From assembly GCA_016930485.1 (NCBI GenBank), contig JAFGGP010000030.1:66745-130744 (forward strand): a stretch of 64,000 nucleotides of DNA. Direction: 5' to 3'. The translations under genes and the position numbers were made by a program. Shown piece by piece: positions 8,522 to 62,775 of this stretch. Source of the stretch: Candidatus Omnitrophota bacterium. GTDB lineage: Bacteria; Omnitrophota; Gorgyraeia; JAFGGP01. The notes beneath the pieces were generated by a model. It had not been told where the DNA came from. It made no database searches and worked only from the letters and a program-made list of their open reading frames with translations. How positions within the stretch are numbered: the first letter of the stretch is position 1; each line of letters starts with the position of its first letter.

Positions 8522-8590
8522 ATAGCGACTAGCGGGTAGCGTATAGTAAAAATAAAAAATCTAATCGCTAACCGCTATACGCTGATCGCT
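8522..8590. repeat. Word-array hairpin, TAGCGNN family
   Basis: Left arm tagcgac tagcggg tagcgta tag, A-rich loop, right arm cta atcgcta accgcta tacgctg atcgcta. Five-bp blocks pair and the 2-nt variable positions mostly mismatch. Fills the gap between the folE stop and the next gene start. Confidence 0.8.
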
Positions 8591-8595
8591 AAAAG

Positions 8596-9165
8596 TTATT
8601 TTATGAGTGCCATCGTCTCCATTCTTGTTTTTTCATCCTGCCTGAAGACACCCCGCACAGCACTGGTAACCGTCAGTATGCCCGGTTTTTTTATGCCGCG
8701 CATACTCATGCACAGATGTTCGGCCTCGATAATCACCATAACCCCCTTGGGTCGCAACCGCTCCATCAGGATATCGGCTATCTCGGTAGTAAGCCGTTCC
8801 TGAACCTGGGGCCGTTTTGATAAAATATCAACCACCCTGGCTAACTTACTGAGACCTGTGACCCGATTCTCCTTGGGAATATAGGCAACGTGCGCGGTGC
8901 CGATAAAAGGTACCAGATGATGTTCGCAGACCGAATAAAGCGGGATGCCTTTCAGGAGCACGATCTCATCGTGTTCCTGATCAAAAAAGACCTTAAGGAC
9001 CTTTCGTGGGTCTTTTTTGATCCCGGAAAATATCTCCTCATACATTTCTGCAACCCGTTTCGGCGTATCGGCCAATCCGTCCCTGGTTATATCTTCGCCA
9101 ATTGCTTCTAATATTGTCTTTACCGCTTTTTTGATTTTTGCCTTATTCATGATAACGCCTTTCAT
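8596..9165 (-). CDS. folE: GTP cyclohydrolase I
   Basis: 189 aa. Contains the conserved [12 protein letters not shown] motif. Length is typical of FolE. Confidence 0.9.
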
Positions 9166-9412
9166 GAGCAGATAAGTTATGGAATGTCAGTGAACACACA
9201 TTATAGGTCGTCGACCGTCTGCGAATGAAACTCCGCCCTTTTGGATGGTGCTCCTTCTTACATGCTGTAGAACTGTTGCTGATTCTCCCGTTACCCCATT
9301 GCCGTCTTATAGTAGTTCATACGGCACACCTTCCTGCTTTGGCCTTGTAGCGACTAAAAGGACGGGATACATTCGCTCCCGCAGCTTCGTTTTGCGAAGC
9401 TAAACGGGGGCT

Positions 9413-10870
9413 TCATTTACCTACACAGAACCGCTCGAATATCAAATTGAGTACCTCGTCGGTCGCGCTGGTACCTAATATATCATCGATGTATTCTGCG
9501 GCATTCTTTATATCATCCGCGACGAACTCTATGGAAAACCCTGCTGCCAGATGTTCAAGGGCCTTGAGGAGTCCCTGATAGGTCTGGCGCAACAGTTCCC
9601 GGTGACGTACATTGCTGATGAGAACAGTGCCGCCGTTCGCCGTAACGGCATTATCCGAAAGGGTCCGGACGATCACCTCTTCCAGGATATCAATCTGTGT
9701 CCCCTCACGTGCCGAGACCTCCACAATTTCTGCCTTGCCGGCATAACCCCGAAGGTCGCCCCCGGAAATTTTCCGGGGTAAATCTATCTTGTTCAGTACA
9801 ATAATTCTTTCTTTCTCTGCGTGGTTTTTCAGCAAGGATCTGTCTTCCTCCTCCAGGGATGCCGCACCGTCCACCACAAGAAGCAGGAGATCGGCCTGTC
9901 TGAGCAGGTTGCCCGCCCGGACCATCCCTTCCCGTTCGATGAAATCGCCTGAGGCGCCAAAGCCGGCCGTATCGCATAACGTCAGGGGAATACCGCGAAG
10001 AAAGGTTTCTTCCGTAATAATATCGCGCGTTGTGCCGGCCGCCGGCGCCACAATAGCCCGCTCACTCTTGAGAAGTGCGTTCAGCAGGCTTGACTTCCCC
10101 ACATTACGCCTGCCGTATATAGCCACACAAAGGCCCTGTTTCACTTTTATTGCCGTGTCAAAACCGACGATTAACTCATCAAGGCCTCCGATGATACCGT
10201 GAAGCTCCTCTCCGGTCCGGTCATATTCAAATTCGGCAATCTCCTCATCGGGGAAATCGATCAGCGCCTCGATGTGTGACAGAATCTGCAACAGGTGCGT
10301 ATGAATCGTTTTGATTTTCTCTGAGAGAGCCCCTGTCAGATGGCTCATCGCAAGTGAAAGTGCTGCGTCGGTCCTGGCATCAACGATATCCGCGACTGCC
10401 TCTGCCTGAACAAGATCTATCTTGCCGTTTAAAAAGGCCCGGCGCGTGAATTCTCCCGGTTCGGCAATGCGTGCTCCGTAACGAACCAAGAGATCAAGAA
10501 TTTTCCTTACCACCACGGGGCCGCCATGACAGTTAACTTCAACCATGTCCTCACCGGTGTATGAACGAGGTGCCTTCATGACAATAAGCACCACCTCATC
10601 CACTGTACCGGGGGGCATCTCTGCGTGTTTTTGTCCCGCAGCATCAACGGCCCTGGCAGATTCGAAAGAGGGGGCAACAATAAATCCGGGAATGACGCCG
10701 CGTCTCTCCAGGTCGGGAATGCGGCTCTTTCCTTTGGGGCAGAATACCTTCGCGGCAATATCGCATGCACCCTTCCCGCTCATCCTTACAATGCCGATCG
10801 CCCCTCTGCCGGAAGGAGTCGCAATGGCAACGATGGTATCCTCCAAATAATCAAATACGTCTCTCTTCAT
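9413..10870 (-). CDS. mnmE: tRNA modification GTPase MnmE
   Basis: N-terminal DTIVAIATP, G-domain GRRNVGKSSLLNAL and DTAG, C-terminal CVGK tetrapeptide. Confidence 0.9.
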   Translation of the reverse strand: MKRDVFDYLEDTIVAIATPSGRGAIGIVRMSGKGACDIAAKVFCPKGKSRIPDLERRGVIPGFIVAPSFESARAVDAAGQKHAEMPPGTVDEVVLIVMKAPRSYTGEDMVEVNCHGGPVVVRKILDLLVRYGARIAEPGEFTRRAFLNGKIDLVQAEAVADIVDARTDAALSLAMSHLTGALSEKIKTIHTHLLQILSHIEALIDFPDEEIAEFEYDRTGEELHGIIGGLDELIVGFDTAIKVKQGLCVAIYGRRNVGKSSLLNALLKSERAIVAPAAGTTRDIITEETFLRGIPLTLCDTAGFGASGDFIEREGMVRAGNLLRQADLLLLVVDGAASLEEEDRSLLKNHAEKERIIVLNKIDLPRKISGGDLRGYAGKAEIVEVSAREGTQIDILEEVIVRTLSDNAVTANGGTVLISNVRHRELLRQTYQGLLKALEHLAAGFSIEFVADDIKNAAEYIDDILGTSATDEVLNLIFERFCVGK

Positions 10871-10896
10871 TATCCGTTTTCCCGCATTATGAGATA

Positions 10897-12288
10897 TTAC
10901 GTGACCGTTACCGGCGTCTTGATGAAATATGTTCGTGCCTCAGCCGCTAAAAACAGAGATCCCGTTATCACGATAATCGTCCCGGGCTCTGCCTCGTTCA
11001 GGGCATACCCAATAGCCTCTTCTGGGGCAGGAAAAACAGTTGTGAGAATCCGGCGCTCCTCGAGTAATCCCCTGAGATCTTCGGGGTCCATTGCGCGCGG
11101 GTGGTGTGCCCGCGTTACAATGCAGCTGCATGGATACCGGGACAGCACCTCGGCGATCCGGCGAACGTCTTTTTCCTTTGAGAGCCCGATAATAACGGTC
11201 AGTCTTTTATGCTCTCCGCCAAAATGTCTCTCGATCGTATCAAAAAGTGCCTGCATGCTGGCGGCATTCTGGGCCCCGTCAAGTATGGTATGCGGGGCCC
11301 TTGATACAATCTCGGCCCGTACCGGCCACTTTACAAAACTGAATCCCTCGGCAATCGCCTCCGAATAAATGCTCAGGTTATACAAACGCAGGGCATCTAT
11401 AACGGCCAACACGGTAGCCGCGTTAATTAACTGGTGTCTCCCTATCAAGGGGATCCGAAAACGCTCATAGCCCCCCAGCGCCCCTTTTGCGGAAAATGCC
11501 TGGTATGTCTTTGAAACCTCTTCTTCTTTATAGACAATATCAATCCCTACCTCGACCGGAAAAGCACCCAATGCCCGGCAGCGTTCGATAAGCACCGACC
11601 GTGCCGGTTGAAGCTGAGGCTGGATAACAACATACGTCTTTGGTTTGATGATGCCTGCTTTTTCCGCGGCGATCTCTTCGATCGTTTCCCCCAACAGATG
11701 CATATGATCAAAACTGATGCCGGTAATCACCGACACAAGAGGATAGACCAGGTTGGTCGCATCCAGCCTTCCGCCCACCCCTGTCTCAAGAACGGCATAA
11801 TCAACCTTCTTCTCTTTAAAATACAGCAATGCCGCCGCGGTCAACACCTCAAAAAAGGTAACCTTGCCAAACTTCCTGATGTCCAACAGTGTTATTTTTT
11901 CCTGCACCCGCCCGATGATGCCGGCAAAATCCTCTTCTGATATCATGCCTTCGAAAAGTGTCCTTGAGCCGTCGTGCCCGTATGAAAGCCCCAGCACGTC
12001 GCTATCCAAAATCCTGATCCTCTCCCGAAACGAGTAAAGATGGGGCGACGTAAACAATCCTACCCGTTGAGCGCCCGCGGCGAGGACATAGGCAAGCATT
12101 GCGGCTACCGATCCCTTGCCTTTCGTTCCTGCAATGTGAATGCAGCGCAGGTCATAATGGGGATCGCCCAGCGCCCTAAGCAGGTGTTTCACCCGCTCAA
12201 GCTTTAACCCGCGATAAAATTGCGCCCCGGGGATGGTCTCGTAATCAATAAGGGAGAAGAGAAACTGGGAAGCTTCCTGATACGTCAT
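10897..12288 (-). CDS. folC: Folylpolyglutamate synthase / dihydrofolate synthase
   Basis: Mur-ligase P-loop HIAGTKGKGS. Length and overall pattern match FolC. Sits in a folate-related gene neighbourhood. Confidence 0.85.
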   Translation of the reverse strand: MTYQEASQFLFSLIDYETIPGAQFYRGLKLERVKHLLRALGDPHYDLRCIHIAGTKGKGSVAAMLAYVLAAGAQRVGLFTSPHLYSFRERIRILDSDVLGLSYGHDGSRTLFEGMISEEDFAGIIGRVQEKITLLDIRKFGKVTFFEVLTAAALLYFKEKKVDYAVLETGVGGRLDATNLVYPLVSVITGISFDHMHLLGETIEEIAAEKAGIIKPKTYVVIQPQLQPARSVLIERCRALGAFPVEVGIDIVYKEEEVSKTYQAFSAKGALGGYERFRIPLIGRHQLINAATVLAVIDALRLYNLSIYSEAIAEGFSFVKWPVRAEIVSRAPHTILDGAQNAASMQALFDTIERHFGGEHKRLTVIIGLSKEKDVRRIAEVLSRYPCSCIVTRAHHPRAMDPEDLRGLLEERRILTTVFPAPEEAIGYALNEAEPGTIIVITGSLFLAAEARTYFIKTPVTVT

Positions 12289-12298
12289 GTATATTTTG

Positions 12299-12488
12299 GT
12301 TCTACGGGTTCACGGGTTATTCGAGTTGCTCGGGTTCAAAAATAGTTCTTCGGGTTGCACGGGTTCGGCGGGTTCTTCGGGTTCGTTTTTGTTATCAAAT
12401 TATTTTTCAACCCGTGAACTCGCTAACTCGCTAACTCGTGAACTATTTTCCACTCGCGAACACGCGAACTCGCAGAACACGCGAACCA
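12299..12488. repeat. Word-array inverted repeat, CGGGTT/CGAGTT family (largest copy)
   Basis: Left side has ~9 words containing CG[GA]GTT at an 8-9 bp period. AT loop at 12386-12408. Right side has ~9 words AAC[CTA]CGNN at an 8-bp period. gttcacgggtt (12308-12318) is an exact complement of aacccgtgaac (12409-12419). Confidence 0.85.
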
Positions 12489-12498
12489 GTTTTAAAGG

Positions 12499-14082
12499 TT
12501 AGTGTCTGAAATGCCGTCTGCCGGTAAATACCATGGCAATGCCGGCTTTGTTGCAGGCCTCTATGACCTCCTGATCTTTGATGGACCCGCCTGGCTGAAT
12601 GATGCTTCTGATGCCGGCATCGGCGCATACCTCAATATTGTCAGGCATCGGGAAAAAGGCATCGCTTGCCAGTACCGCACCCTGTGCACGCCCCCCGGCC
12701 TTTTCGGCCGCAATCCGCACGGCATCGACACGGCTCATCTGTCCTGCCCCGATACCGATGGTCTTAAGACCATCGGCGATCACGATAGCATTCGACCGGA
12801 CAAAACGGGCTATCCTCCACGCAAAGGCGAGTGCTTTCATATCGTCTCCGGTCGGTGCCTTTGTTGTCGCCACTGTACACTCTGATAATTCACCGGCAAA
12901 CACCGAGTCTTTTTCTTGAATCAGAAGGCCGCCGGTTATCTTCTTGAGGTGATACGTCTCACTCTTTCCAGCCGCCCCCGGCGCCAGTTCTAGGAGTCTC
13001 AGGTTTTTCTTGGTTGTTAAAAGAGTAAGCGCCTTCTGGGTAAACTGGGGTGCGATAATGCATTCAAGAAAACCGGCATCAAGCATTCTCTCGGCCAGCC
13101 CTATGTCGCAGGTCCTGTTGATACCGACAATCCCCCCGAAGGCCGACAGGCTGTCCCCCTCTAAGGCATCCTGAAATGCCCCTTCTATCTCGGCACCCAG
13201 TGCCGCACCGCAGGGATTGCCGTGTTTAATGACCACGGCGGCCGGCTCATCAAATTCGTACGCAATGGTATAGGCGCTTTCCAAATCAAGGATATTGTTA
13301 TAGGAGAGCTCTTTGCCGTGGAGTTTGCGCGCGGCAAAAATACCGATCGGTCCGGCACCATCGGCCTCCCTGTAAAGTGCCGCCGCCTGGTGGGGATTTT
13401 CGCCATACCGCAACTGCCTCTCGCGCATAAACTGTAACTGCACTGCATCGGGAAAATAACCAGCCATCTGCTGCGTCTGTTTTTCCTTTGAAAGGGCCCT
13501 ATCGAGATATGCCGAGATAAAGCGGTCATAACGCGAGGTTTCTCCGAGGGCCTTTACGGCCAGCTGTCCCAGCGTCTCTTTCGAAAGACACCCGTTGTTC
13601 TCCCTTAATTCATCGAGAACCGGCTCATACTGTGAAATGCCGCTGATAACGGCAACATGTCTGTAATTCTTGGCAGCGGCCCTCAGGAGGCATACGCCAC
13701 CGATATCTATCTCTTCGAGCATATCGCTAAGCGGCAGAGTTCCTCCGGAGCTCTTCTCCTCAAAGGGATACAGATTGACACACACCAGGTCAATGGGCAT
13801 TATATTGAGCCTTGCGAGCTCATCGGTATGACTCTTTTTATCGCGGAGCGCCAGAATGGCACCGTGTATTTTGGGATGAAGCGTTTTTACCCTGCCGTCC
13901 AGAATCTCGGGAAAATCGATCTCTTTTTCGATGAGCGCTGCTGTGACGCCGTGCTCCTTAAGCAGCTGAAAGGTGCCCCCTGTCGAGAGTATCTCGATAT
14001 CCAGCGCGCGCAATCCCCGCGCAAAAGAAACGACATCATCCTTACGGGAAACGCTGACTAACGCCCTCCTGATACGTACCAT
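12499..14082 (-). CDS. purH: Bifunctional AICAR transformylase / IMP cyclohydrolase
   Basis: 527 aa. N-terminal MGS-like ALVSVSRKD...LSTGGT, C-terminal AICARFT (SDAFFPMPDN, GGSIKD). Confidence 0.95.
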   Translation of the reverse strand: MVRIRRALVSVSRKDDVVSFARGLRALDIEILSTGGTFQLLKEHGVTAALIEKEIDFPEILDGRVKTLHPKIHGAILALRDKKSHTDELARLNIMPIDLVCVNLYPFEEKSSGGTLPLSDMLEEIDIGGVCLLRAAAKNYRHVAVISGISQYEPVLDELRENNGCLSKETLGQLAVKALGETSRYDRFISAYLDRALSKEKQTQQMAGYFPDAVQLQFMRERQLRYGENPHQAAALYREADGAGPIGIFAARKLHGKELSYNNILDLESAYTIAYEFDEPAAVVIKHGNPCGAALGAEIEGAFQDALEGDSLSAFGGIVGINRTCDIGLAERMLDAGFLECIIAPQFTQKALTLLTTKKNLRLLELAPGAAGKSETYHLKKITGGLLIQEKDSVFAGELSECTVATTKAPTGDDMKALAFAWRIARFVRSNAIVIADGLKTIGIGAGQMSRVDAVRIAAEKAGGRAQGAVLASDAFFPMPDNIEVCADAGIRSIIQPGGSIKDQEVIEACNKAGIAMVFTGRRHFRH

Positions 14083-15505: not shown

Positions 15506-15523
15506 ACCCCACCTCCTCTCTTA

Positions 15524-15560
15524 AGCTTTCAGCAGCTGATGGCTGAGAGCCGATGGCTTT
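15524..15560. repeat. Word array, TCAGC/GCTGA family (short copy)
   Basis: agctttcagc agctgat ggctgag agccgat ggcttt, directly upstream of the TM-helix gene start. Confidence 0.6.
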
Positions 15561-15751: not shown

Positions 15752-17725
15752 TTACTTAAAGAAAAGCGGGGCAAACACCAATGATACAATCGCCATCAGC
15801 TTAATCAGAATATTCATCGACGGACCCGAGGTATCTTTGAACGGGTCACCGACGGTATCGCCTACAACAGCCGCGGCATGGGTCGGGGTCCCCTTACCGC
15901 CGAGATTGCCTTCTTCGATCCATTTTTTCGCGTTGTCCCATGCCGCCCCGGTATTTGCCATCATAATACCCATCAGGACGCCACAGGTCGTGGCGCCGGC
16001 CAGAAACCCGCCGAGCGCCTCTTTTCCAATACCAAATCCTATCGCAAGCGGGGCAATAACCGCAAGAAGTCCCGGAAGAATCATCTCAACAAGAGCCCCT
16101 TTGGTTACGATATCAATGCACCGGGCCGTGTCCGGCTTTGCCTTCCCTTCGAGGAGCCCGGCAATCTCCCGAAACTGTCTTCGTATCTCATGAACCATCT
16201 TATGTGCCGCGCGTCCGACCGCCTTCATGGTCAAGGCCACGATAACAAATGGCATCAGCCCCCCCAGTAAAAGCCCGATAATAGTTGCCGGATCGGTCAG
16301 GCTGATTGTCTCAAGCCGTGCGGTCCGCTGATATGCGGAAAAAAGCGCCAGTGCCGTAAGCGCGGCGGATCCGATGGCAAACCCCTTGCCGATTGCAGCG
16401 GTTGTATTACCCAGCGCATCCAGTTTATCGGTAATCTTCCTGATCTGCGGTGGCTGATGTGACATCTCGGCAATGCCGCCGGCATTGTCCGCAATCGGGC
16501 CGTATGAATCGGTAGACATAACCAGACCGATAGTCGAAAGCATCCCGACCGCCGATATGGCGATCCCGTAGAGCCCTGCAAAGTAATAGGAAACATAGAT
16601 GGAAAGGCAGATCGTCAGGAGCGGCATAATCGAACTCTCAAAACCGACCGCAAGCCCGGTAATAATAGTCGTCGCAGGACCTGATTCTGCGCTGGCGGCA
16701 ATAGTCTTTACCGGCGGGCCTGAGGTAAAAAATTCGCTCTCAACCCCGATCAAGATCCCTGCGATGAGACCGCTTAATACCGCCCAGAATACACCGACGC
16801 CGCCCAGCATCTGTGTTACCGCAACATAGGCGCCGATGATGAAAAGGACTCCGCTGATATACGTGGCATACCGCAGGGCCGACTGCGGATTGATTCGTTT
16901 TAAGATACCCATCGAGGAGACGCCGATGACCGAGGCGATCAATCCGATGGTAATCAAAACCAGCGGAAGCGCCATCAATGTAAGCGGGGTAAGCATCGTT
17001 GCGCCGATCGCCATTGTCGCAACAACCGACCCGACATAGGATTCAAAAAGATCGGCACCCATACCTGCCGTATCACCGACGTTGTCGCCTACATTGTCGG
17101 CGATCACCCCGGGATTGCGGGGATCGTCCTCGGGGATACCGGCCTCAACCTTGCCAACCAGGTCTGCCCCCACATCGGCGCTCTTAGTATAGATGCCGCC
17201 GCCGACACGGGCAAAGAGCGCAATGGAGCTGGCACCCATTGCGAATCCGTTAATAATAAATGGTTCCTTGGTAAAGAGGCAGGCAACGGCGATACCCAAC
17301 AGTCCGAGCGCGGCAACAGAAATACCCATAACAGAACCGCCGCGAAACGCCACATCGAGCGCCTCCGGGGCGCCGCCGGTCACGGCCGCCTGACAGGCGC
17401 GATTACTGGAACGCGTCGCTGCCTGCATCCCGATAAATCCGGCAAGCATCGAACATCCGGCACCGGCAAGATAGGCCACTGCGGTCCACATTCCCAAAAA
17501 CATAAACAGGACAACAAAAACCAGGACGACAAAAATACCGATAATCCGGTATTCGCGCGCTAAAAATACCATAGCGCCCTTATGCACCTCCTCGGCAATC
17601 TCCTGCATCACCTCGGATCCGGCGTGCCGGCGCTTTACCGTCACAAAGGTCCAGAGGGCAAAAAGCATTCCCAGCACACCAACCCCTACAGGCACCAACT
17701 CCATCATGTTCATACAATCCTCCAC
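15752..17725 (-). CDS. hppA: Membrane-bound ion-translocating pyrophosphatase
   Basis: Motifs [28 protein letters not shown] and [21 protein letters not shown] has Ala rather than Lys at the position known to separate K+-dependent from K+-independent enzymes, so I predict the K+-dependent type. Several in-frame ATGs at the N-terminus. Confidence 0.95.
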
Positions 17726-17733
17726 TTTTTAAA

Positions 17734-17958
17734 GTCACAAGACACATGACACAAGTCACATGTGAAAACTCAAAATAAAAAAAGTGAATAACAGCATATC
17801 ATTCTTCAAAAAAAGTCGGGAAGTCTTCGCCCCCTCATCCAGCGAGCCGCTCGAATCATAACAATCGTTCTCAATTATGTTTCTATGCGCTAACTGACAA
17901 TTCGCCATACAGAGTTTTTTGGGATTTTGTTTTTTGTTCTTACTTGTGACATGTGTCT
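17734..17958. repeat. Nested element: GWCACAN arms outside, A-rich AAATCAA-type arms inside, ~125-bp unique core
   Basis: Left arm gtcacaa gacacat gacacaa gtcacat gtg (17734-17764). Right arm cttgtgacatgtgtc (17943-17957) complements it at 14 of 15 positions. Inner arms are aaaactcaaaataaaaaaag and gagttttttgggattttgttttttg. Lies in the hppA upstream region. Confidence 0.8.
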
Positions 17959-18034
17959 ATACTAAGGTGTAATTGCTGCCTATTGTAGCAAAAAAAAATA
18001 ATTTAACAAGTTATTTTCAAGTTCCTGAATATAT

Positions 18035-18066
18035 AAAAAACCCGGCTAGAAAACCGGGTTTTTTAT
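18035..18066 (-). terminator. Rho-independent terminator after the repeat-protein gene (bidirectional in appearance)
   Basis: Stem aacccgg / ccgggtt, flanked by A-runs and T-runs on both sides. Confidence 0.8.
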
Positions 18067-18115
18067 CAAACGGCACCTGCATATTACTATAGTGCCCTTC
18101 CTCGTTGCCGCTGCC

Positions 18116-19759
18116 TTATCGAATAACGATGACTGGATCGTCAAACGGCGGATTTTCCTCAATAACCGTCCATTGCCCCTCGGGGTGCACAACAATCTGA
18201 CATTCGATATAATGGATTTTGTCTTGATATTGTAATATCACCAGTCTCGTCATAACACCAACTAAGCCATCAGGCGTTATATCTTCAGAACCAACGATCG
18301 AGATGTCTTCTTTATCCACGCCAAGGGCGCAAGCAAGGTAGGTACGGGCGGTGAGTTCTGCCATGATTGGATCATGGTTTGGTATTTTTCTTACCGCTGT
18401 CCATTGTGCACCAAAATGGCTGCCAAGGTGGCACTCGATATAATGGACGGTGTCTTGATATTGCAGCACGACTACCCGCATGCTGAGTCCAGCCATACCG
18501 TAAGGGGTTATATCTTCAGAATCTCTGACTGTGATATCGCCTCTATCCACCCCTAGCACATTAGCCAGGTAGCGGCGGGCCGTAAGCTCTGCTATGAAGG
18601 GGTTGTAGGCTGAAATCTCCCGCGTAACAGTCCACTGCGCACCTGGATAAACGCCGATCTTGCATTCGATATAATGAACGGCACCTTGATATTCCAGTGT
18701 AATTACCCTTGTCATAGCACCAAGCAGGCCGCGAGGTGTCACGTCTTCGGAGTCGGTGACCCTGATATCACCTTTGTCAACCCCTAGCGCATCCGCAAGA
18801 TAGGCGCGGGCAGTCAGCCCTGCTATAAGCGGGTCGGATGGTGAGATTTCCCGGATAGCCTTCCATGGCGCATTACGCCTGTCGGTGGCACGCTGACACT
18901 CAATATAGTAGGTTTTACCTTGATATTCCAACAGTACAAGCCTTGTCATGACACCGGTTACTGTCATAACAAGACCGTTCATGGATAGAAACGTTAGATT
19001 TTCGGAACCGATAATCGTAATATCTTTCTTCTTCACACCGAGTTTATCAGCAAGGTAATCACGGGCCGCGAGCTCTGCAGGATGTCTCTCTATCTTTGGT
19101 TCTGGTTTTGGGTTGCGCTCGGGGCCCTGTCTTTGCTGTTTGACAAAACAGCTGCCGTCCCGCTCTATCCAGCCACCGGAACCGTTCGACGTGCCGTAGT
19201 ACAGATCCTTGCCAACCTTGAATGTCACAGTATAGGATTGCAACACAACATTGAGCACTGCATAATTTCCTATAGGCCAATGCGTAAGAGTGCCCGTGCT
19301 GAGATTGGTAAGTGCGATCTCATCGACCGAAATTCCTAATTGTTCGGCCAGTTTTTCTTTCCCGTCCTGGATAACCGCCATGGCAATCTCTCGAAACGCT
19401 TCATAGGTAGGTTTGGGAATATAGGTCCAGACGCCCTTGTTGTATGCCTCCTTGAGTATTTCTTCAATATCTTCTTCGCCCTCTGTTTTGCGCCTGCTAA
19501 ACGGTGATGGTTGTTCTCTATGCTTGTTCCTCATTGCCTCTATATGTTTACGTTTCTCTACCGCGCGGTTTAGTATCGCGTCCTGGCCCAATACATCCCC
19601 TACACTTTGCAGATTATCCCCCGGCTTTCCTTCGCCTGTTTGGGGCTTCGGCGCAGGCGGCGCTGCCCAGGCAAGCTGACTGCATATAAAAAGAATGATA
19701 AGGTTAAGCGTGATTGCCCGAATGGAGAATGCCCTATTGAATGTGTGATACGGTACCAT
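18116..19759 (-). CDS. Secreted protein with four tandem ~77-85 aa PepSY-like repeats
   Basis: ORF 18116..19828. Start set at MVPYHTF (ATG 19757-19759), which has AAGGAGG upstream. Signal peptide ...ICSQLAWA. Four repeats of the form AELTAR.YLA..LGVD+.DI.V..SEDITP.G....MTRV..L.YQ...HYIEC. Confidence 0.7.
   Translation of the reverse strand: MVPYHTFNRAFSIRAITLNLIILFICSQLAWAAPPAPKPQTGEGKPGDNLQSVGDVLGQDAILNRAVEKRKHIEAMRNKHREQPSPFSRRKTEGEEDIEEILKEAYNKGVWTYIPKPTYEAFREIAMAVIQDGKEKLAEQLGISVDEIALTNLSTGTLTHWPIGNYAVLNVVLQSYTVTFKVGKDLYYGTSNGSGGWIERDGSCFVKQQRQGPERNPKPEPKIERHPAELAARDYLADKLGVKKKDITIIGSENLTFLSMNGLVMTVTGVMTRLVLLEYQGKTYYIECQRATDRRNAPWKAIREISPSDPLIAGLTARAYLADALGVDKGDIRVTDSEDVTPRGLLGAMTRVITLEYQGAVHYIECKIGVYPGAQWTVTREISAYNPFIAELTARRYLANVLGVDRGDITVRDSEDITPYGMAGLSMRVVVLQYQDTVHYIECHLGSHFGAQWTAVRKIPNHDPIMAELTARTYLACALGVDKEDISIVGSEDITPDGLVGVMTRLVILQYQDKIHYIECQIVVHPEGQWTVIEENPPFDDPVIVIR
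18119..19078 (-). repeat. Four tandem coding repeats (231-255 bp each) inside the secreted-protein gene
   Basis: Unit boundaries from the protein alignment: 18824-19078, 18593-18823, 18362-18592, 18119-18361. Conserved blocks LTAR.YLA, LGVD, SEDITP, HYIEC, QWT. Confidence 0.8.
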
Positions 19760-20046
19760 GTGAAACCTCCTTGTTGTTATATGCTGCAGCGCCTTTTCAT
19801 CTTTTGTTCTCCTGCTAATGCAAACCAAGCTACCGGTTCATCTTCGGTAGCCTGGCCATCCTTTTTTCTGCGCTATCTAAGGATCCGTAACTTTGCGTCC
19901 CACATTCTCATGTGGTTTGCCTTTTCGTGATGTCCCTATATATACAACCCCGGCCGTTAGAAAACATTACATTATTTTTTTGGTCTTTTACAGGATCGGC
20001 TGGTAACTGCATAAATTTAAAGGAGTTATAGAATCATCGGCGGGAT

Positions 20047-23550: not shown

Positions 23551-24102
23551 TCACATCTTCGCGAGTGTTACCCCCCTCTGGGCATCGTACTTGCCCCTTT
23601 TATCTTTGTAGGTAGTCCTGCATATCTCGTCGCCCTGAAAGAATAAAATCTGCGCTATCCCTTCCTCTGCGTATAGCTTTACCCCCGACGATGCCCCGTT
23701 GATAATCGAGATAGTCAGGTGTCCTTCCCATCCGGGTTCAAGCGGCGTGACATTAACGACAATCCCGCAGCGCGCCAGGGTGCTTTTGCCGACGCAGGTG
23801 CCCATGATATTGTCGGGCATCCTGAAATATTCGAGCGAGCGGCCCAGCACATAGGAGCCGGCGGGTATGACGCAGACGTCGGCGATTAACTCATCAAAGG
23901 AACCGGCCGACATATTCTTCGGATCGATAAAACTGTCACGGTTGCCTCTCCATATCATAAACTCGTTGGAAAGGCGCATGTCATAGCCATAGCTGGAAAG
24001 GCCGTAGCTGATACAGCCGTCCCTGACCTGCTCGGGGGCAAAGGGTTCGATCATGTTGTGTTCTCTGACCATCTTTTCAATCCACAGGTCGCTTTTAATC
24101 AT
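23551..24102 (-). CDS. dcd: dCTP deaminase
   Basis: ORF 23551..24129 begins with a GTG that lies inside a repeat element. I prefer the ATG at 24100-24102 (MIKSDLWI), which matches typical Dcd N-termini. Conserved VGKSTLARCGI and GWEGHLTISI. Confidence 0.9.
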   Translation of the reverse strand: MIKSDLWIEKMVREHNMIEPFAPEQVRDGCISYGLSSYGYDMRLSNEFMIWRGNRDSFIDPKNMSAGSFDELIADVCVIPAGSYVLGRSLEYFRMPDNIMGTCVGKSTLARCGIVVNVTPLEPGWEGHLTISIINGASSGVKLYAEEGIAQILFFQGDEICRTTYKDKRGKYDAQRGVTLAKM

Positions 24103-24121
24103 AACTTTCTCTTTGTTCGCT

Positions 24122-24212
24122 GAGTTCACGAGTTCTGCGAGTTCTTTTTTAGCGTGTAGCGATTATAATTCTTTGTGTCACTACACGCTAGTCGCTAAAC
24201 GCTAACCGCTAG
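24122..24212. repeat. CGAGTT-family fragment followed by a TAGCGNN-family hairpin
   Basis: gagttcacgagttctgcgagttc (24122-24144), then ttagcgtgtagcgatta ... tacacgctagtcgctaaacgctaaccgctag. ttagcgtgtagc is identical to 55245-55256. Confidence 0.8.
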
Positions 24213-24312
24213 AAACCTCCAGTTATCGGCCCCTGTCCGTGTAACGGCGACGGAGGCCGATAAGCCGGAAGCATATTAACAAGTACTCGATTTACAGTTT
24301 GGTTATTTTATA

Positions 24313-24360
24313 GTGACGCATTTTGTGATACTGCATGTGACATGTGTCTTGTGTCATGTG
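24313..24360. repeat. Word array, GTGAC/GTCAC family, abutting the nrdJ stop codon
   Basis: gtgacgc attttgtgata ctgcatgtgacatgtgtcttgtgtcatgtg. gtgacatgtgtct (24337-24349) is identical to 17946-17958. Confidence 0.8.
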
Positions 24361-26679
24361 TTAAGAGCACTTGGAATAACCGCAGGCATGACATACGGCA
24401 CAGCCCTCTTCATGCCACAGGGCAGCGCCGCAATCAGGGCAGACGCCGATTACATTCGCTCCTCCTCTTGGCCCCTTAACCGGCATCAGTTCTTCTTCGT
24501 GCATGGTATGGGGAGAATGCCTTTCTTCTATCTTGGGGACCTCGGCACCTTCCGCATTCAGCCGTTTTTCGATAACACGCGCTATGGCATCGGCGCATGA
24601 AAAGATCCGCAGCCCCCTGAGCCACGTCGGTTCAGGACATCTGATTCCCCTGAGCTGCTCCATGATGGCCTCCAGCGGAATGCCGCTGCGCAGGGCCAGT
24701 GATACGAGCCGGCCGATCGCCTCAAGCTGGCTTGCCGCGCATCCGCCGGCCTTGCCCATCTGCGAAAACATCTCAAACGGATTGCGCTGTTCGTCTTCAT
24801 TAATGGTCACATACAGACTGCCGCAGCCGGTGCCTATTTTGGTGGTGGTGCCGTGTATGACTTCTGGTCTCGGCCTTCTGCGGAATACATGGGTCTCTTT
24901 GTCGTGGTCTTCCTGGAGGCCCTGCATCTCTCCCGAGGCGCCTCCGGTCTTCTTAATCCCGACTGTCAGCACCTGTTCCTCGCGGCTTCCGTCTCGATAA
25001 ATGGTGATGCCCTTACACCCCATATCGTACGCCGCCAGGTATGCCTCTCTCACTTCTTCTTTTGTGGCACTATTGGGAAAATTGATCGTCTTTGAGACCG
25101 CATCGTCGGTATACTCCTGAAAGGTAGCCTGCATCTTGACATGCCAGTACGGCGTAATGTCCCGCGCAACCACAAACACCTTTTTAATCTCTTCGGGAAT
25201 TTCAGCAATGCCCTGAATGCTTCCGTCCTGGGCAATCCGCCGCATCAGCTCCTCGGAATAAAAACCCCGGTCGCGCGCGCATTTTTCAAAAGCCGTGTTC
25301 ACATAATAAAGATCCGTCCCATCCATAACCGTCTTGGTAAAGACAAGAGAAAAAAGCGGTTCTATACCGCTGGAACAGTCGGCGATCATGCTGATGGTCC
25401 CGGTCGGCGCAATGGTGATAACGGTAGCGTTCCTGAGTTTCGGGCCACCCGGTATGTTGTACACGCTGTGTTCGAAGTTCGGGAATACCCCGCGCTCTTC
25501 GGCGAGTTCTGCCGAGGCTCGCATAGCCTCCTCATAAATAAATCCCATGACCTCTTTGGCAATCTTATTGCCCTCTTCCGAGTCATACGGTATCCGCAGC
25601 TGATAGAGCATGTCCGCAAACCCCATAACACCCAGGCCGATCTTGCGATTGCCGTGGACCATCTCCTCGATCTGCGGCAGAGGGTACTTATTCACTTCGA
25701 TAACATTGTCGAGAAAACGCACTGCCTCTTTTACTACCCTGGCAAGTCTGCCGTAATCAATTCTTTCGCTGGTCACCATGTGAGCCAGATTAATCGAACC
25801 GAGATTACATGATTCGTAGGGCAGGAGCGGTTGTTCACCGCACGGATTGGTCGCCTCGATCTCACCGAGCCTGGGCGTCGGGTTATCCTGGTTTACCCGA
25901 TCGATAAAAATGATGCCGGGATCGCCGTTTTTCCACGCGTTCTCTACCATTCTGTCAAAGACCTCCTGCGCCCTGCGTCTCCCCTCCACCTTTTTAGTCT
26001 GGGGATTCATGAGGCAATACTCATCATCGGTCTTTACCCGTTCCATAAAGTCGTTGGTCACCGCGACGGAGATATTAAAATTCGTGATGTCCTTTTCGTT
26101 TTGCTTACAGGTAATAAACTCCTCGATATCAGGGTGATCGACGCGCAGGATGCCCATATTCGCCCCTCTGCGCGTACCCCCCTGTTTCACCGCTTCGGTG
26201 GCCGAGTTAAATACTTTCAAAAACGATACCGGGCCGCTTGCAACACCACTGGTCGATCTGACGATACTGTTTTTCGGTCTCAGTCTGGAAAAAGAAAACC
26301 CCGTTCCCCCGCCTGACTTATGTATGAGTGCAGTATTCTTGATTGCCTCAAAAATACTCTCCATAGAATCGTCAACCGGTAACACAAAACAGGCGCTCAA
26401 CTGTCCCAGCTCTCTACCGGCATTCATCAACGTCGGTGAATTCGGAAGAAAATCCAACCGAGTCATTGCGTCGAAAAACTTCTCTTCCCACTCGGCCTGC
26501 TGTGCATCGGTAGCATTGAATTTTTTTTCTGCGCTGGCGATGTGACGCGCAACACGACGAAACATCTCTTCAGGGGTCTCGGCCGGACAACCCTCCTTAT
26601 TCTTAATAAGATAACGTCGTTCTAACACCCTTTTGGCATTTTCGGACAAAACAAGTCGGCAAGAACGGGTTGGTGACAT
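24361..26679 (-). CDS. nrdJ: Class II (adenosylcobalamin-dependent) ribonucleotide reductase
   Basis: Active-site block NPCGEQPLLPYESCNLGSINL and IAPTGTIS. No beta-subunit gene nearby. C-terminal CPDCG...CAVCHACG zinc ribbon. ATG at 26677-26679 with AGGAGG 5 nt upstream; the ORF track starts at a GTG at 26685. Confidence 0.9.
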   Translation of the reverse strand: MSPTRSCRLVLSENAKRVLERRYLIKNKEGCPAETPEEMFRRVARHIASAEKKFNATDAQQAEWEEKFFDAMTRLDFLPNSPTLMNAGRELGQLSACFVLPVDDSMESIFEAIKNTALIHKSGGGTGFSFSRLRPKNSIVRSTSGVASGPVSFLKVFNSATEAVKQGGTRRGANMGILRVDHPDIEEFITCKQNEKDITNFNISVAVTNDFMERVKTDDEYCLMNPQTKKVEGRRRAQEVFDRMVENAWKNGDPGIIFIDRVNQDNPTPRLGEIEATNPCGEQPLLPYESCNLGSINLAHMVTSERIDYGRLARVVKEAVRFLDNVIEVNKYPLPQIEEMVHGNRKIGLGVMGFADMLYQLRIPYDSEEGNKIAKEVMGFIYEEAMRASAELAEERGVFPNFEHSVYNIPGGPKLRNATVITIAPTGTISMIADCSSGIEPLFSLVFTKTVMDGTDLYYVNTAFEKCARDRGFYSEELMRRIAQDGSIQGIAEIPEEIKKVFVVARDITPYWHVKMQATFQEYTDDAVSKTINFPNSATKEEVREAYLAAYDMGCKGITIYRDGSREEQVLTVGIKKTGGASGEMQGLQEDHDKETHVFRRRPRPEVIHGTTTKIGTGCGSLYVTINEDEQRNPFEMFSQMGKAGGCAASQLEAIGRLVSLALRSGIPLEAIMEQLRGIRCPEPTWLRGLRIFSCADAIARVIEKRLNAEGAEVPKIEERHSPHTMHEEELMPVKGPRGGANVIGVCPDCGAALWHEEGCAVCHACGYSKCS

Positions 26680-29563: not shown

Positions 29564-29788
29564 CCGCCTCCGGCTGATGAAAAAAGTCTTCGGTTGATTG
29601 CCTGTGGTTTGTGGTTTGAAAAAATATACCATGGTTTATGTTTGAATCTGTTAAGGAGTAAAGTTTTTTATTTCACGACTCGCTCTGCGCTCGCTTGAAA
29701 AGTATGACCTTTGAGTTCTTCGATAGTCGGGCGCCTGCCCTCCGTAGCCTTGGCGAAGGAGGGATCTTCGGTCTATGGTCTATGGTCT
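29526..29788. repeat. AGACCRT heptamer array and its perfect 19-bp inverted partner, flanking the batC-batD junction
   Basis: Five tandem AGACCRT heptamers (with flanking partial words) at 29526-29563. agaccatagaccatagacc (29543-29561) is the exact reverse complement of ggtctatggtctatggtct (29770-29788). Confidence 0.9.
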
Positions 29789-29794
29789 TGTATA

Positions 29795-41155: not shown

Positions 41156-41237
41156 GGGCTCTCAGCCATCAGCCTTCAGCCGCTGTCCGCCACACTGCGT
41201 GGCGAGATCTCGCCTTCAGCCGCTGAGAGCTGAAGGC
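41156..41237. repeat. NTCAGCN-family element with internal GC hairpins, between htpX and clpB
   Basis: gggctctcagccatcagccttcagccgctg ... cgccacactgcgtggcg, ggcgagatctcgcc ... ttcagccgctgagagctgaaggct. ctcagccatcagcc is identical to 62557-62570. Confidence 0.8.
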
Positions 41238-44733: not shown

Positions 44734-44929
44734 TTTCACATTGTCCGCCAAATAGCGAGACCTCGCCCGCCTCGTCATCTTTGATGACGGGCGAGACGGG
44801 AAATGTGGGCTGCCCTTCCCCACATTGAAATGTGGGCTACTTGGACACAGAACGGCATAGTGTGTGTTCATTTTGAACTTCACATTGTCCTTTTGCATTT
44901 TACTTTTTGATATTTGATTTTATTAATTG
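44734..44929. repeat. Composite element downstream of the exonuclease gene, sharing a terminus with the batA-batB element
   Basis: ttcacattgtcc occurs twice (44734, 44879). AAATGTGGGC/CCCACATT hairpins are present. tgttcattttgaacttcacattgtcc (44865-44890) matches 31936-31961 at 22 of 26 positions. ttttgatatttgat (44905-44918) is identical to 31987-32000. Confidence 0.8.
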
Positions 44930-44937
44930 ATTATACG

Positions 44938-54405: not shown

Positions 54406-54594
54406 CATTTGAACCTTCAGCTGTCAGCTATCAGCTGTCAGCTTTTTAAAAGACGGTTAGTTTTTATACATGTGTAACTTTAATATATATAATATGTTAT
54501 ATTATATCGATTACTGCGTATGCTGACATGTTCCCTGCCCCATCAACAACTTTGAATCCGAAAGACTGAATGCTGATAACTGAAGGCCGAAAGC
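54406..54594. repeat. NTCAGCN-family inverted arms flanking a ~120-bp AT-rich core upstream of the marR operon
   Basis: Left arm ccttcagctgtcagctatcagctgtcagc (54414-54442). Right arm gactgaatgctgataactgaaggccgaaagc (54564-54594). Each arm is preceded by a tttgaa word. Confidence 0.8.
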
Positions 54595-55244: not shown

Positions 55245-55433
55245 CTTAGCGTGTAGCCGATTAGCGGCTAGCGTATGGTGAATAAATCCTAAACTCTACC
55301 TCATTCTCGTAATTAGTAACTCGCTTCGCTTTCTCAAACGGCTTTTAAAGTGTTAGTTACTAGTTACTGATTACTAGTTACGTTTTTCTTTGTGGGTTTG
55401 TCTAATCGCTAAACGCTATCCGCTAGACGCTAA
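55245..55433. repeat. Nested element: TAGCGNN arms outside, TAGTTAC-type arms inside
   Basis: Outer arms ttagcgtgtagccgattagcggctagcgtatgg (55245-55277) and ctaatcgctaaacgctatccgctagacgctaac (55401-55433). Inner arms cgtaattagtaact and gttagttactagttactgattactagttacg. Confidence 0.85.
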
Positions 55434-55435
55434 CA

Positions 55436-56701: not shown

Positions 56702-56748
56702 AACTCCCGCCAGGCCCGACCTTCGGCCATCCTCCGTAACGTCAAATT

Positions 56749-56902
56749 CCAAATGTCAAATGAATCACTTAATCTCAAATAACAAATAAAAAAATTTTTT
56801 AGGTAATTTGGGATTGAAGATTCATTTTGATTTTGCCTGCCAACTCTTTAGCAGGGACATTGGTCATTTGTCATTAAGTTACCTGTGTCATGTGTCATTG
56901 GT
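56749..56902. repeat. AT-rich AAATCAA-type hairpin (~40-bp arms) plus a GTCAT/GTCAC word array overlapping the cca 3' end
   Basis: Arms at 56749-56794 and 56795-56834 are about 80% complementary (tcaaatgaatc pairs with gattcattttga). Then cctgc...gcagg, then gtcattt gtcatta agttacct gtgtcat gtgtcat tgg. The last codons of cca (LTNDT) lie in this array. Confidence 0.75.
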
Positions 56903-59508: not shown

Positions 59509-59588
59509 GGTCATCAGGTCACCACGATACCATGTCACCAGAAAAAACTAAAAATAAAAAGCGGCTCACTGGCGACTTCGCGACTTGT
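59509..59588. repeat. Word-array hairpin, GTCAC/GTGAG-GCGAC family
   Basis: ggtcatc aggtcacc acgatacc atgtcacc, A-rich loop, then ctcactg gcgactt cgcgactt gt. Confidence 0.65.
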
Positions 59589-61429: not shown

Positions 61430-61436
61430 AAACAGG

Positions 61437-61640
61437 ATGAGTGGACCGATGAAGATTCAACTGCACAACAGGGTAAAAGAGCTGGAGATCGACTCTATCA
61501 AGGCGCGCGTGCTTCTCAAAGAACTGGGCATCTCTCCCGGGGCGGCGCTCGTTATCAAAAATGATGTCCTCGTCTGTGAAGACGAAATTCTCACGGCCGA
61601 AGACTCCATCAGAATCATCAAAACTATCTCGGGTGGCTGA
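61437..61640 (+). CDS. ThiS/MoaD-family ubiquitin-like sulfur carrier (TtuB-like), C-terminal GG
   Basis: 67 aa ending in ISGG. Lies 2 nt upstream of a PP-loop thiolase gene. Confidence 0.7.
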   Translation: MSGPMKIQLHNRVKELEIDSIKARVLLKELGISPGAALVIKNDVLVCEDEILTAEDSIRIIKTISGG

Positions 61641-61642
61641 GT

Positions 61643-62599
61643 ATGAGATGCCGTAACTGCCGTGAAAAAGCCGTTATCCACATGCCGGCGCATAAACTGG
61701 CCCTCTGTGGGTCCTGTTATATAAGCTGGTTTGAGGGCTATACCGAGCGGACTATTCAGAAGTTCAATATGCTGAAACCGGGCGAGCAGATCCTCGTTGC
61801 TGTCTCGGGCGGGAAAGACAGCCTTGCCCTGTGGCAGGTACTCACGCGGCTAGGGGTTAACACGACCGCGCTCTATATACACCTCGGGATAGCGCAGAAA
61901 GAGTACTCTGATACCTCGCTTGCGAAGGCACGGGCCTTTGAAGAGCGCCTCAATTCCTCCCTCATCGTGATAGACGTCGCGAAAGAACTCGGCATGTCAG
62001 TCCCTGAAACAAAGCGGCTTATGAGCCGGAAAGTCTGTGCGACCTGCGGCCTTATCAAGCGCTATTATATGAATAAGACCGCTGCGGACGGTGAGTTCGA
62101 TGCCATCGCTACCGGACACAATCTCGATGACGAAACGGCATCGCTTTTGGGGAACACTATGGAGTGGCGGCTTTCGTATCTGAAAAGGCAGCACCCGGTC
62201 CTTGCCGAAAGACCACCGGGCCTCAAAAAGAAGGTCAAGCCGTTCTGTTACTTTACCGAAAAGGAGACCGCAACCTATGCCTTCCTCACCGGCATAGATT
62301 ATATTATGACCGAGTGCCCCTATGCGCTCCACGCCTCGTCTATCGAATATAAAAATGTCCTGAATGCGCTGGAGGAAAACGGGGCGGGGAGAAAACGGCG
62401 TTTTTACGACCACCTCCTGAAGGCGCAGGGACACCTCGCCTTCCCTGAGGAGGCCGAACTAAACAGGTGCCGGATATGTAACCAGCCCACCACCTTATCC
62501 GTCTGCTCCTTCTGCAATATCTCAAAGAAAATACGGGAGATCAAAGATAAAAAGCCCTCAGCCATCAGCCGTCAGCATTCAGCTGTGGCCGAGGTTTAA
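61643..62599 (+). CDS. ttuA: PP-loop ATPase, TtuA/NcsA-like tRNA 2-thiolation enzyme
   Basis: N-terminal CRNC...CGSC zinc finger, PP-loop SGGKDS, central CATCG, C-terminal CRIC...CSFC zinc finger. The last ~15 aa (PSAISRQHSAVAEV) are encoded by a repeat element. Confidence 0.7.
   Translation: MRCRNCREKAVIHMPAHKLALCGSCYISWFEGYTERTIQKFNMLKPGEQILVAVSGGKDSLALWQVLTRLGVNTTALYIHLGIAQKEYSDTSLAKARAFEERLNSSLIVIDVAKELGMSVPETKRLMSRKVCATCGLIKRYYMNKTAADGEFDAIATGHNLDDETASLLGNTMEWRLSYLKRQHPVLAERPPGLKKKVKPFCYFTEKETATYAFLTGIDYIMTECPYALHASSIEYKNVLNALEENGAGRKRRFYDHLLKAQGHLAFPEEAELNRCRICNQPTTLSVCSFCNISKKIREIKDKKPSAISRQHSAVAEV
62554..62590. repeat. NTCAGCN word array forming the 3' end of the ttuA-like ORF
   Basis: ccctcagcc atcagcc gtcagca ttcagct gtggcc. 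Translated in frame as PSAISRQHSAVA. Confidence 0.75.
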
Positions 62600-62747
62600 A
62601 AACCCCAGCCCCCGCATTAAACCAGAGTCCTCTGTAGAACATACTGAAACGCGGCGCACTTCTTTAAAGACTTCCGTAACCTATTTAGCAGTTATCCACA
62701 GGGTAGGTCACATTTAAGTGTGCCCTACGGTCGTGCGGTTGCTTGTA

Positions 62748-62775
62748 CTTTGTGATTTGGAATTTGAAATTTCCC
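62748..62775. repeat. TTTGRRA heptamer array next to the CDF gene stop
   Basis: ctttgtga tttggaa tttgaaa tttcccc, a clear 7-bp period. Confidence 0.6.

Follow-up and report, generated by a model that had tools for sequence, protein, structure and literature searches.

Opposed arrays of degenerate 7–9-nt words between the genes of an Omnitrophota bacterium, with counterparts in other bacterial genomes and in viral contigs

The window, as the whole stretch of DNA analysed here will be called, comprises 64,000 nt of contig JAFGGP010000030.1 from a Candidatus Omnitrophota bacterium; its G+C content is ~50% and the minus strand holds nearly all of its genes. Gene content is of a housekeeping kind, including purH, folC, mnmE, folE, uvrD, dcd and the genes for an H+-PPase and ribonucleotide reductase, as well as a moxR-DUF58-batA-batD aerotolerance operon, clpB, htpX and an RND pump. 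Intergenic gaps in this region contain repeat elements, each made of two opposed arrays of a 7–9-nt unit in which the 5-nt cores are complementary between the arms. An earlier reading made from the letters alone (the original prediction) had proposed one construction rule for them, a degenerate tandem word followed by a loop or core and then by an array of the reverse-complement word, and this rule is borne out by Tandem Repeats Finder (TRF) and by the anatomy of the elements. It had also counted about 20 gaps with hairpins; arrays are indeed present in ~17 gaps of the window, but only ~12 hold clear hairpins. The best relatives of purH in the collections searched are Omnitrophota metagenome-assembled genomes at 45–50% identity, and these collections held no close relative for a presence/absence comparison (top identity 66% for DUF58 and 50% for purH).

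The arrays are far more frequent than shuffled sequence would produce. A scan for exact 5-mers repeated at least three times at a period of 6–10 returned 14 arrays in the window, compared with a mean of 0.15 over 20 block shuffles. Each of the 14 is inside an intergenic gap or in contact with one, and such gaps account for 12.8% of the window; the controls, 50 kb of E. coli K-12 and 64 kb of Zixibacteria/Ignavibacteria loci, contained zero arrays. TRF detected period-7, -8 or -9 arrays at almost every locus named in the original prediction, and the intergenic lag-7 periodicity on which that prediction depended is present, self-match being 0.301 at lag 7 in intergenic DNA versus 0.267 at lags 5–6 in intergenic DNA and 0.242 at lag 7 in coding sequence. 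By our own estimate the arrays occupy ~2.1 kb of the 8.2 kb of intergenic DNA, or about one quarter. An independent Logan assembly is 100% identical across the element at 8522, and, as the same architecture is seen in many unrelated assemblies, an assembly artefact is an unlikely source of the elements. A Logan contig of the same organism (L001/L103) stops at window position 12360, inside a CGGGTT array, as expected from an assembler meeting a repeat; such arrays fragment assemblies. The organism is also present in Logan run SRR13394437.

Word families reappear at unlinked loci of the window, and their copies share the 5-nt core, while loops, unit numbers and spacers vary. In all nine informative copies, meaning gaps in which both orientations occur, the word stands on the 5' side and its reverse complement on the 3' side (p about 0.002), a polarity that reads identically on either strand. 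Outer and inner word families are nested in three gaps (17734-17962, 31696-32043 and 55246-55434), and the proposal of several dispersed, nested families is upheld by these gaps and by the recurrence of words at constant polarity. Two arrays, at 24122 (CGAGTT) and 62554 (TCAGC), are unpaired, their inverted partner being absent. The further claim that the families are dispersed rather than products of slippage holds only in its first half: TRF also reports higher-order periods of 14, 16, 17 and 18, which are duplicated two-unit blocks and indicate local slippage. Exact strings of 11–14 nt shared between copies had been offered as proof of dispersal, but they are near chance once the word itself is shared (an estimated ~0.7 expected for a 14-mer). 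Purine-rich 5' arms (18 versus 9) were not in significant excess (p = 0.12). Stop codons in all three frames were considered as the purpose of the heptads and rejected as a general rule; they occur in 10 of 13 window arrays, but in a fraction of only 0.34 of 62 arrays from all loci, versus 0.36 in a column-permuted null.

The position of the elements relative to codons is close-fitting, and contact with stop and start codons in the gaps of co-directional operons agrees with what had been predicted. In 10 gaps of the window the 5' arm begins 0–8 nt past the upstream stop, the arrays at 38502 and 56863 overlap the upstream gene end, and in 11 of 14 gaps at most 27 nt (usually 3–27) separate the end of the 3' arm from the downstream start. 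Some of the downstream genes (folC, DUF58 and clpB) lack a Shine-Dalgarno (SD) site. The likely start of batD lies inside an (AUGGUCU)n array, and this array also encodes the signal peptide of the protein, MVYGLWSTVYGLWLFTGVASA (window 29525-29566, minus strand). A role as intrinsic (Rho-independent) terminators was rejected: the hairpins have no T tract, and the organism uses ordinary terminators elsewhere, canonical stems with T tracts being found in the window at 23423-23392, 15729-15694 and 15607-15584.

The individual elements are given here without a strand, and z compares the fold with dinucleotide shuffles. The simplest TAGCG hairpin, between folE and the next open reading frame (ORF), spans 8522-8592, with three TAGCGNN units at 8522-8547, an A/T loop and four NNCGCTA units at 8560-8592 (z -3.7/-4.0). 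A second (24149-24213) has two units in its 5' arm and 4–5 CGCTA units in its 3' arm; it lies between the unpaired array of three CGAGTT units in the dcd start region (24118-24145) and a TGTGAC/TGTGTC array adjoining the ribonucleotide reductase stop codon (24313-24361), both detected by TRF, and z is -5.3 for 24122-24365. In the third (55246-55434), arms at 55246-55276 and 55400-55434 enclose a GTAACT/TAGTTAC hairpin at 55300-55381 (z -4.2/-5.5). The TCAGC family includes a short TCAGC/GCTGA hairpin at 15520-15556, just 5' of the SD of an MscS-like gene and 3' of two canonical terminators (weak, z -1.8), a hairpin between DUF58 and a gene for a peptidyl-prolyl isomerase-like protein (35734-35800, z -3.8), one with a G+C-rich core that fills the htpX-clpB gap (41156-41234, z -1.9), and the element at 54412-54592, whose arms at 54412-54446 and 54556-54592 flank an A/T-rich palindromic core (z -4.8). 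Its unpaired member, four TCAGCC units at 62553-62583 found by TRF, is located at the 3' end of a ttuA-like gene in a convergent gap.

A CGGGTT/CGAGTT hairpin, of period 8–9 and ~195 nt, fills the purH-folC gap at 12296-12490 with arms at 12296-12388 and 12408-12490 (z -6.1/-5.5), and a CGGGTT/AACCCG hairpin (36690-36794, z -7.0) fills the moxR-DUF58 gap from the stop codon to 3–13 nt before an ATG without an SD; a small CGGGTT/AACTCG pair over the clpB end (38502-38560) has no significant fold. The H+-PPase gene has a nested element in its 5' region (17733-17962), in which outer GTCACA and TGTGAC arrays at 17733-17764 and 17940-17962 surround inner A/T-rich arrays and a core, with a z of only -1.3, and a promoter-like site lies upstream of it at 18009-17982. 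The nested element that fills the batA-batB gap (31696-32043, z -3.8) has outer GTCAC units at 31696-31727 (again at 31785-31822) and TGTGAC units at 32017-32043, inner arms of AAATCAA (31727-31765) and TTTGATA (31984-32016), and G+C-rich core hairpins. The array that likely holds the batD start and signal peptide consists of 5.6 units of TAGACC(R) at 29525-29566, and its partner arm, 2.7 units of GGTCTAT at 29765-29792, begins 2 nt past the stop of the upstream TPR gene (z -4.1/-6.4 for 29520-29795). CAAAT/ATTTG and TGTCAT/TGTGTCA arrays occupy 56741-56898 between cca and a CitMHS transporter gene (z -2.9/-4.4), and a weak GGTCAC array in a divergent gap at 59509-59545, without a clear partner and with z of -0.6/+0.9, is a doubtful member.

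The convergent gap that follows suhB contains an A/T-rich array of TTTGATA type (44891-44935) as part of a ~90-nt stretch resembling 31921-32016. The two stretches, at 31921-32016 and 44850-44935, form a second dispersed repeat with 76% identity over 42 nt (GTTCATTTTGAAYTTYACATT...) that ends in the A/T-rich word array. Small palindromes are also shared, namely gcgagatctcgcc (about 41190) and gcgagacctcgcc (about 44755). Three mechanically called ORFs, 8051-8521 (minus), 23551-24129 (minus) and 61643-62599 (plus), extend into or through word arrays; the first two probably begin in reality at 8494, an ATG with GGAGG as its SD, and at 24102, and the third, the ttuA-like ORF, reads through the TCAGCC array with its C-terminal end.

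In other Omnitrophota the same construction is found with different words, often at identical operon junctions; hairpins whose words differ between genomes occur at moxR-DUF58, purH-folC, folC-mnmE, TPR-batD and batA-batB. Directly after purH the words are GCAGNNN (L002) and ACCAGAGC (L016), before mnmE they are TAGTGNN (L005) and AAGTGAT (L008), the TPR-batD junction of L097 carries GCCCGTTNN, and the batA-batB junction of Ca. Gorgyraea atricola (L099) carries GACAAGN. In a sample of 80 metagenomic contigs selected by DUF58 similarity alone, such hairpins are present in roughly 10–12 of the approximately 68 moxR-DUF58 gaps that could be measured; z is -4.7 to -7.5 for the foldable ones, and one (L036) uses the TCAGC word in the polarity of the window. 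Between contigs of 88.6% identity, orthologous elements retain the core word and differ by one whole 8-nt unit and at spacer positions. Near-identical contigs (window/L001, L057/L060 and L062/L063) showed no difference in unit number, the differences between L062 and L063 being concentrated in one recombined segment.

Further observations were made in these genomes. Heptamers are translated in L097, where (TTTGTTC)x4 at 11383-11412 encodes a signal peptide, and in L099, where GACAAG units lie in the low-complexity linker of a TPR gene (13920-13996), 1.5 kb from the intergenic hairpin of the same word. The moxR-DUF58 gap of L024 (1-1160) contains another type of repeat, four copies of a unit of about 19 nt, ggagtcgggggctaataa. 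L100, from a related Omnitrophota genome with no word arrays, has a 37-nt palindrome resembling repetitive extragenic palindromes (REPs), gtttacacttcaagcaatactcgttttgtaaacttac, in at least three gaps (2560-2733, 7675-7794 and 15917-16001). A small gene with a Pfam match to the magnetosome protein MamI lies just 5' of htpX and moxR in L098 (5921-6142) and L100 (7795-8016), and no counterpart was seen in the window.

The TCAGC and TAGCG families are also found in viral contigs. Pattern scans returned at least 120 stretches for TCAGCNN x4, 63 for TAGCGNN x4 and 49 for the control TGCACNN x4; CTGACNN was rejected as a control word, being confounded with GCTGAC units of the same family, and TGCACNN was substituted. 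Among the matches listed, a GCTGA array lies within 400 nt of 66 of the 137 TCAGC arrays, in the order TCAGC to GCTGA in 62 and reversed in 4, all eight TAGCG pairs have the order TAGCG to CGCTA, and only 1 of 61 control TGCAC arrays is paired. The 48 non-redundant TCAGC hairpins among these matches typically have four units per arm and a ~21-nt loop, and they terminate in AGCTnTCAGC...GCTGAnAGCT, this basal unit being the best conserved and best paired. In the 21 viral-contig hairpins with co-directional flanks the median distance is 6 nt from stop to element (quartiles -1 to 12) and 22 nt from element to start, and over 47 hairpins the median fold z is -7.3, with predicted 5-bp helices separated by 2x2 internal loops. 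One contig, L139, represents the head module of a tailed phage (terminase, portal, protease and major capsid protein), and nearly every gap in it holds a TCAGC hairpin. A BLAST search of cultured phages with one TCAGC hairpin gave no match, possibly through the low-complexity filter. In L139, L113 and L114 TCAGC arrays often open with GTAGCGG or TAGCT; a single family may therefore include both TAGC(G/T) and TCAGC as variant words.

Most of the window elements fold beyond dinucleotide shuffles (z -3 to -7), so that the expected folding holds for them, but six are indistinguishable from shuffles: those at 38502, 59509, 15524, 41156 and 17734, and that at 55351 taken alone. "Beaded" stems, in which 5-bp paired blocks are separated by 2-nt mismatches, are confirmed for the TAGCG and TCAGC families, but the CGGGTT hairpin at 36691 is paired almost throughout, as are some elements of other genomes. 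Either DNA strand, or a transcript, can fold into such helices of ~5 bp with small internal loops, in several registers.

In comparing the elements to known systems, Rfam release 15 gave nothing on them at the gathering threshold or at E ≤ 1, its only matches in the window being a cyclic di-GMP-I-type riboswitch and three sub-threshold ones at 17984-18126, where a canonical T-tract hairpin (18040-18070) is also located. The riboswitch aptamer, at 19843-19931 (minus) with 57.6 bits against a gathering score of 35, lies upstream of a 570-aa ORF (18116-19828) that has zero Pfam matches above gathering score. CRISPR arrays, with 23–50-nt direct repeats and unique spacers of similar length, are not what TRF and repeat comparison show, and miniature inverted-repeat transposable elements (MITEs) are rejected since the flanks are without target-site duplications and the internal sequences are unrelated. 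REP copies share a 20–40-nt sequence and are spread by REP-associated tyrosine transposases (RAYTs). The imperfect palindrome of that length shared by REPs, bacterial interspersed mosaic elements (BIMEs) and REP-derived hairpins (REPINs) is absent here, where copies have only the 5-nt core and the array architecture in common. The negative part of the original prediction is therefore upheld for REP/BIME, MITE and CRISPR, and the covariance-model check with Rfam is empty on the elements as well. REP/BIME sequences, known as mRNA stabilisers, binding sites of gyrase and integration host factor (IHF), and targets of insertion sequences (IS) (PMC3116915), are like the elements in being dispersed intergenic palindromic repeats within operons; the difference lies in the tandem word array with its shared 5-nt core, and no RAYT is found among the window ORFs scanned. 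In T7-like phages, intercistronic RNase III hairpins with imperfect ~20–28-bp stems and internal loops stand between many polycistronic genes, a layout resembled by the L139 head module as it is known here from sequence; the T7 sites are not known to have a tandem word structure, conserved word or polarity.

The claim that no counterpart is known did not survive, as two described systems share the architecture. The first was reported in the genome paper of Geobacter metallireducens (Aklujkar et al. 2009, PMC2700814), where 24, 21 and 8 opposite-strand site pairs form classes 1–3, each site having 3–5 tandem units of 8, 8–9 or 7 nt with variable spacing, for instance between proB and proA. The unit consensus is GTTGCTYN, TCTCCGTS[Y] and MTYCTGA, with about 5 conserved and 2–3 variable positions, and the authors named them "putative global regulator binding sites", guessing at DNA binding by IHF/HU; IS elements insert at a fixed distance from class 1 sites (PMC2700814). 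In the published alignment of class 3, each site has five NTYCTGA heptads, and all 8 pairs place TCAGR-type units to the left of the YCTGA ones (PMC2700814). The window resembles this system in its tandem degenerate 7–9-nt units, 3–5 per site, in intergenic opposite-strand pairs at variable distance (roughly 70–115 nt in class 3; the exceptions in the window are 24122 and 62554), in having several classes per genome with the same polarity, and in the likeness of the class 3 word to TCAGC/GCTGA. It differs in that no Geobacter unit is tandem in the window, the phylum is another, and nesting was not reported there.

Units STRR1-3 of the short tandemly repeated repetitive (STRR) heptamers of cyanobacteria are reportedly CCCCAGT, TTGGTCA and CAACAGT, and none of these has a tandem occurrence in the window. 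In filamentous cyanobacteria, 7-bp STRR hairpins were described between hupS and hupL and called common, with a role in transcript stability or translational coupling proposed (PMC2670836). The likeness extends to non-coding 7-bp tandem units in a few families per genome and to the hairpin-forming arrangement between genes, although co-transcription is here presumed from gene layout; degenerate 5+2 units, inverted pairing as a rule, nested families and the host distinguish the window, a filamentous cyanobacterium being rejected as its source because the DUF58 protein, identical to one annotated as from a Candidatus Omnitrophica metagenome-assembled genome, and the purH relatives point to Omnitrophota. 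A third system is formed by TAACTGA direct heptamers of Beggiatoaceae, Cyanobacteria and Bacteroidetes, where 2–6 units end a few nt before start codons on the transcripts of unrelated genes, and a post-transcriptional role with Csp, S1 and CsrA as candidate binders was proposed (MacGregor 2015, PMC4679880). This unit contains CTGA, like the 3' arm of the TCAGC family, but the repeats are near-exact and direct copies of a single word, without a hairpin partner and with only one inverted pair reported, and the word is present 2+1 times in the window, never in tandem. The literature search found no work linking the Geobacter, cyanobacterial and TAACTGA cases or describing a TCAGC family, and full-text searching for typical array strings returned unrelated matches only, apparently polymerase chain reaction primers judging by their titles.

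In weighing these data, it is possible, and we tentatively propose, that the elements are co-transcribed intercistronic stem-loops that act in cis on mRNA stability or processing, or on translational coupling; the anatomy favours readings at the level of RNA and translation. In its favour stand the non-random, intergenic and foldable nature of the arrays, their stop-to-start placement in the window and in viral contigs, their presence in nearly every gap of the L139 head module and at matching junctions of different genomes, the well-conserved and well-paired basal unit of the TCAGC family, the ordinary terminators elsewhere, and the role proposed for the STRR hairpins between hupS and hupL (PMC2670836). 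The elements are most likely transcribed, as judged from their location inside co-directional operons and 5' leaders. A stem-loop on the 3' side of the upstream cistron could slow 3'-exonucleolytic decay or mark processing sites. As the stem would span the distance from 0–8 nt past the stop to a few nt before the next start, it could also keep the two codons side by side, so that a ribosome terminating upstream might melt the basal helix and uncover the downstream initiation region, resulting in translational coupling. The arrays themselves change by slippage, through gain, loss and duplication of whole units and with the arms largely independent, and they retain their core word as well as its orientation, with the word 5' and the reverse complement 3'; such slippage is visible in the higher-order periods and in the whole-unit indel between orthologous elements that keep their core.

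Several points weigh against this proposal, beginning with transcription across the elements, which is assumed from gene layout. The tests for selection at the RNA level (G.U pairs, unit order and spacer pairing) were negative. Among 21 hairpins, of which only those with same-strand flanking ORFs were counted, there was no sense-strand G.U excess (8 G.U, 13 A.C and 26 other mismatches), and fold strength is about equal for the sense and antisense strands. Shuffling the order of units hardly reduced complementarity between the arms (mean z 0.74, Fisher p 0.08), giving no unit-by-unit covariation and showing that the arms have only the 5-nt core in common. Spacer pairing in the 48 phage hairpins is at chance, with 26% Watson-Crick pairs and an equal value in shifted registers; the spacer repertoires of the two arms are there roughly reverse complements of each other. 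Chance spacer pairing and the unit-order shuffles together indicate that each arm is drawn independently from a shared pool of unit variants, with only the core linking the two. Some copies are unpaired, lie downstream of terminators or stand in convergent gaps, and in L098 and L100 the gene order is kept with junction gaps of 12–33 nt that are free of word arrays, so the elements are dispensable there. Lastly, selection on stems alone fails to explain why the same words and polarity occur across unrelated genomes.

That the arrays are a by-product of mutation, or a selfish repeat without function, is rather unlikely but accounts for several of these points. Slippage would expand the units and template switching would invert copies, and the exact filling of gaps would follow from growth until the arrays meet sequence under selection, such as coding regions and SD sites. 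The patchy distribution in syntenic Omnitrophota, including the short gaps of L098 and L100, agrees with such an origin, as do the different elements at one junction in different lineages, the unconstrained spacers, the slippage evident from higher-order repeats, and the intrusion of arrays into coding sequence that tolerates them (signal peptides in batD and L097, and the L099 linker). It does not sit easily with the recurrence of the same words and polarity at unlinked loci (9 of 9) and in unrelated viral contigs (62 versus 4 for TCAGC and 8 versus 0 for TAGCG among the matches listed), given that pairing is very rare (1 of 61) for arrays of TGCAC, the control word. Core words are moreover kept at 88.6% identity while spacers and unit numbers change, and in the phage head module nearly every gap has an element despite packaging constraints.

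Binding at the level of DNA, in which a nucleoid-associated or regulatory protein would occupy head-to-head duplex arrays, as proposed with IHF/HU for Geobacter (PMC2700814) and as gyrase and IHF do at BIMEs, is judged unlikely. The behaviour of the arms as independent arrays from a common unit pool without covariation would suit it, as would the constant polarity relative to the centre, the lack of a sense-strand G.U excess and the copies in convergent and divergent gaps. Against it, five to seven words per 64-kb window would need several binding specificities, units spaced at 7 bp do not keep phase with the DNA helix, no candidate protein is identified, and the tight abutment on stops and starts and the use in a phage late operon suit RNA or translation better.

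Non-autonomous mobile elements of a MITE or REPIN kind, with a transposase encoded elsewhere and nesting as insertion of element into element, are quite improbable; the original prediction had listed a REPIN-like element as one option. Dispersed and nested families of constant polarity, the defined ends of the TCAGC family and the IS insertions at a fixed distance from Geobacter class 1 sites may be cited in their favour, but the core word alone is shared, with loops, unit numbers and spacers differing, related genomes have different words at the same junction, target-site duplications were not seen, and the window ORFs that were scanned and the fetched flanks yielded neither a transposase nor a RAYT. 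Contingency (phase-variation) repeats, whose changes in unit number would toggle neighbouring genes, are hardly credible even though tandem 7-nt units adjoin start codons and unit numbers differ between species, as the arrays are degenerate, which suppresses slippage, the neighbours include housekeeping genes such as purH, folC and clpB, paired inverted arrays are foreign to contingency loci, and no copy-number difference was seen in the three near-identical contig pairs.

For the proposed intercistronic stem-loops, the conserved words and their polarity are the least explained feature, and it is mainly because of them that a trans-acting partner should be searched for. A wider proposal, which we regard as doubtful, is that the TCAGC/TAGCG beaded hairpins are a cross-phylum class of cis-elements (in Omnitrophota, other uncultured bacteria, Geobacter-like genomes and many phages), defined by conserved word, polarity and stop-to-start position and read by a conserved trans-acting partner. 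This partner would be a single-strand binder with a footprint of roughly 7 nt, such as a cold-shock-domain or S1 protein, or else the terminating ribosome. If true, the class would be a general intercistronic control device, REP-like in its spread and so far undescribed as a class.

The elements belong to a repeat kind (STRR-like) that has been described but not explained, the Geobacter and cyanobacterial descriptions having never been connected. What is new is the presence of hairpins at the same junctions in other Omnitrophota and in unrelated metagenomic contigs, usually with other words, the recurrence of TCAGC and TAGCG words at unchanged polarity in many viral contigs, a phage head module among them, and the finding that elements run from stop codon to start codon with arms alike only in their 5-nt core. 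In practice, such arrays break assemblies, lengthen ORF calls, and supply start codons and signal peptides. As G. metallireducens is cultivable and genetically tractable, the question of function is directly testable. If the elements do act on mRNA stability or translational coupling, they would represent a common, unannotated level of control over operons in uncultured lineages.

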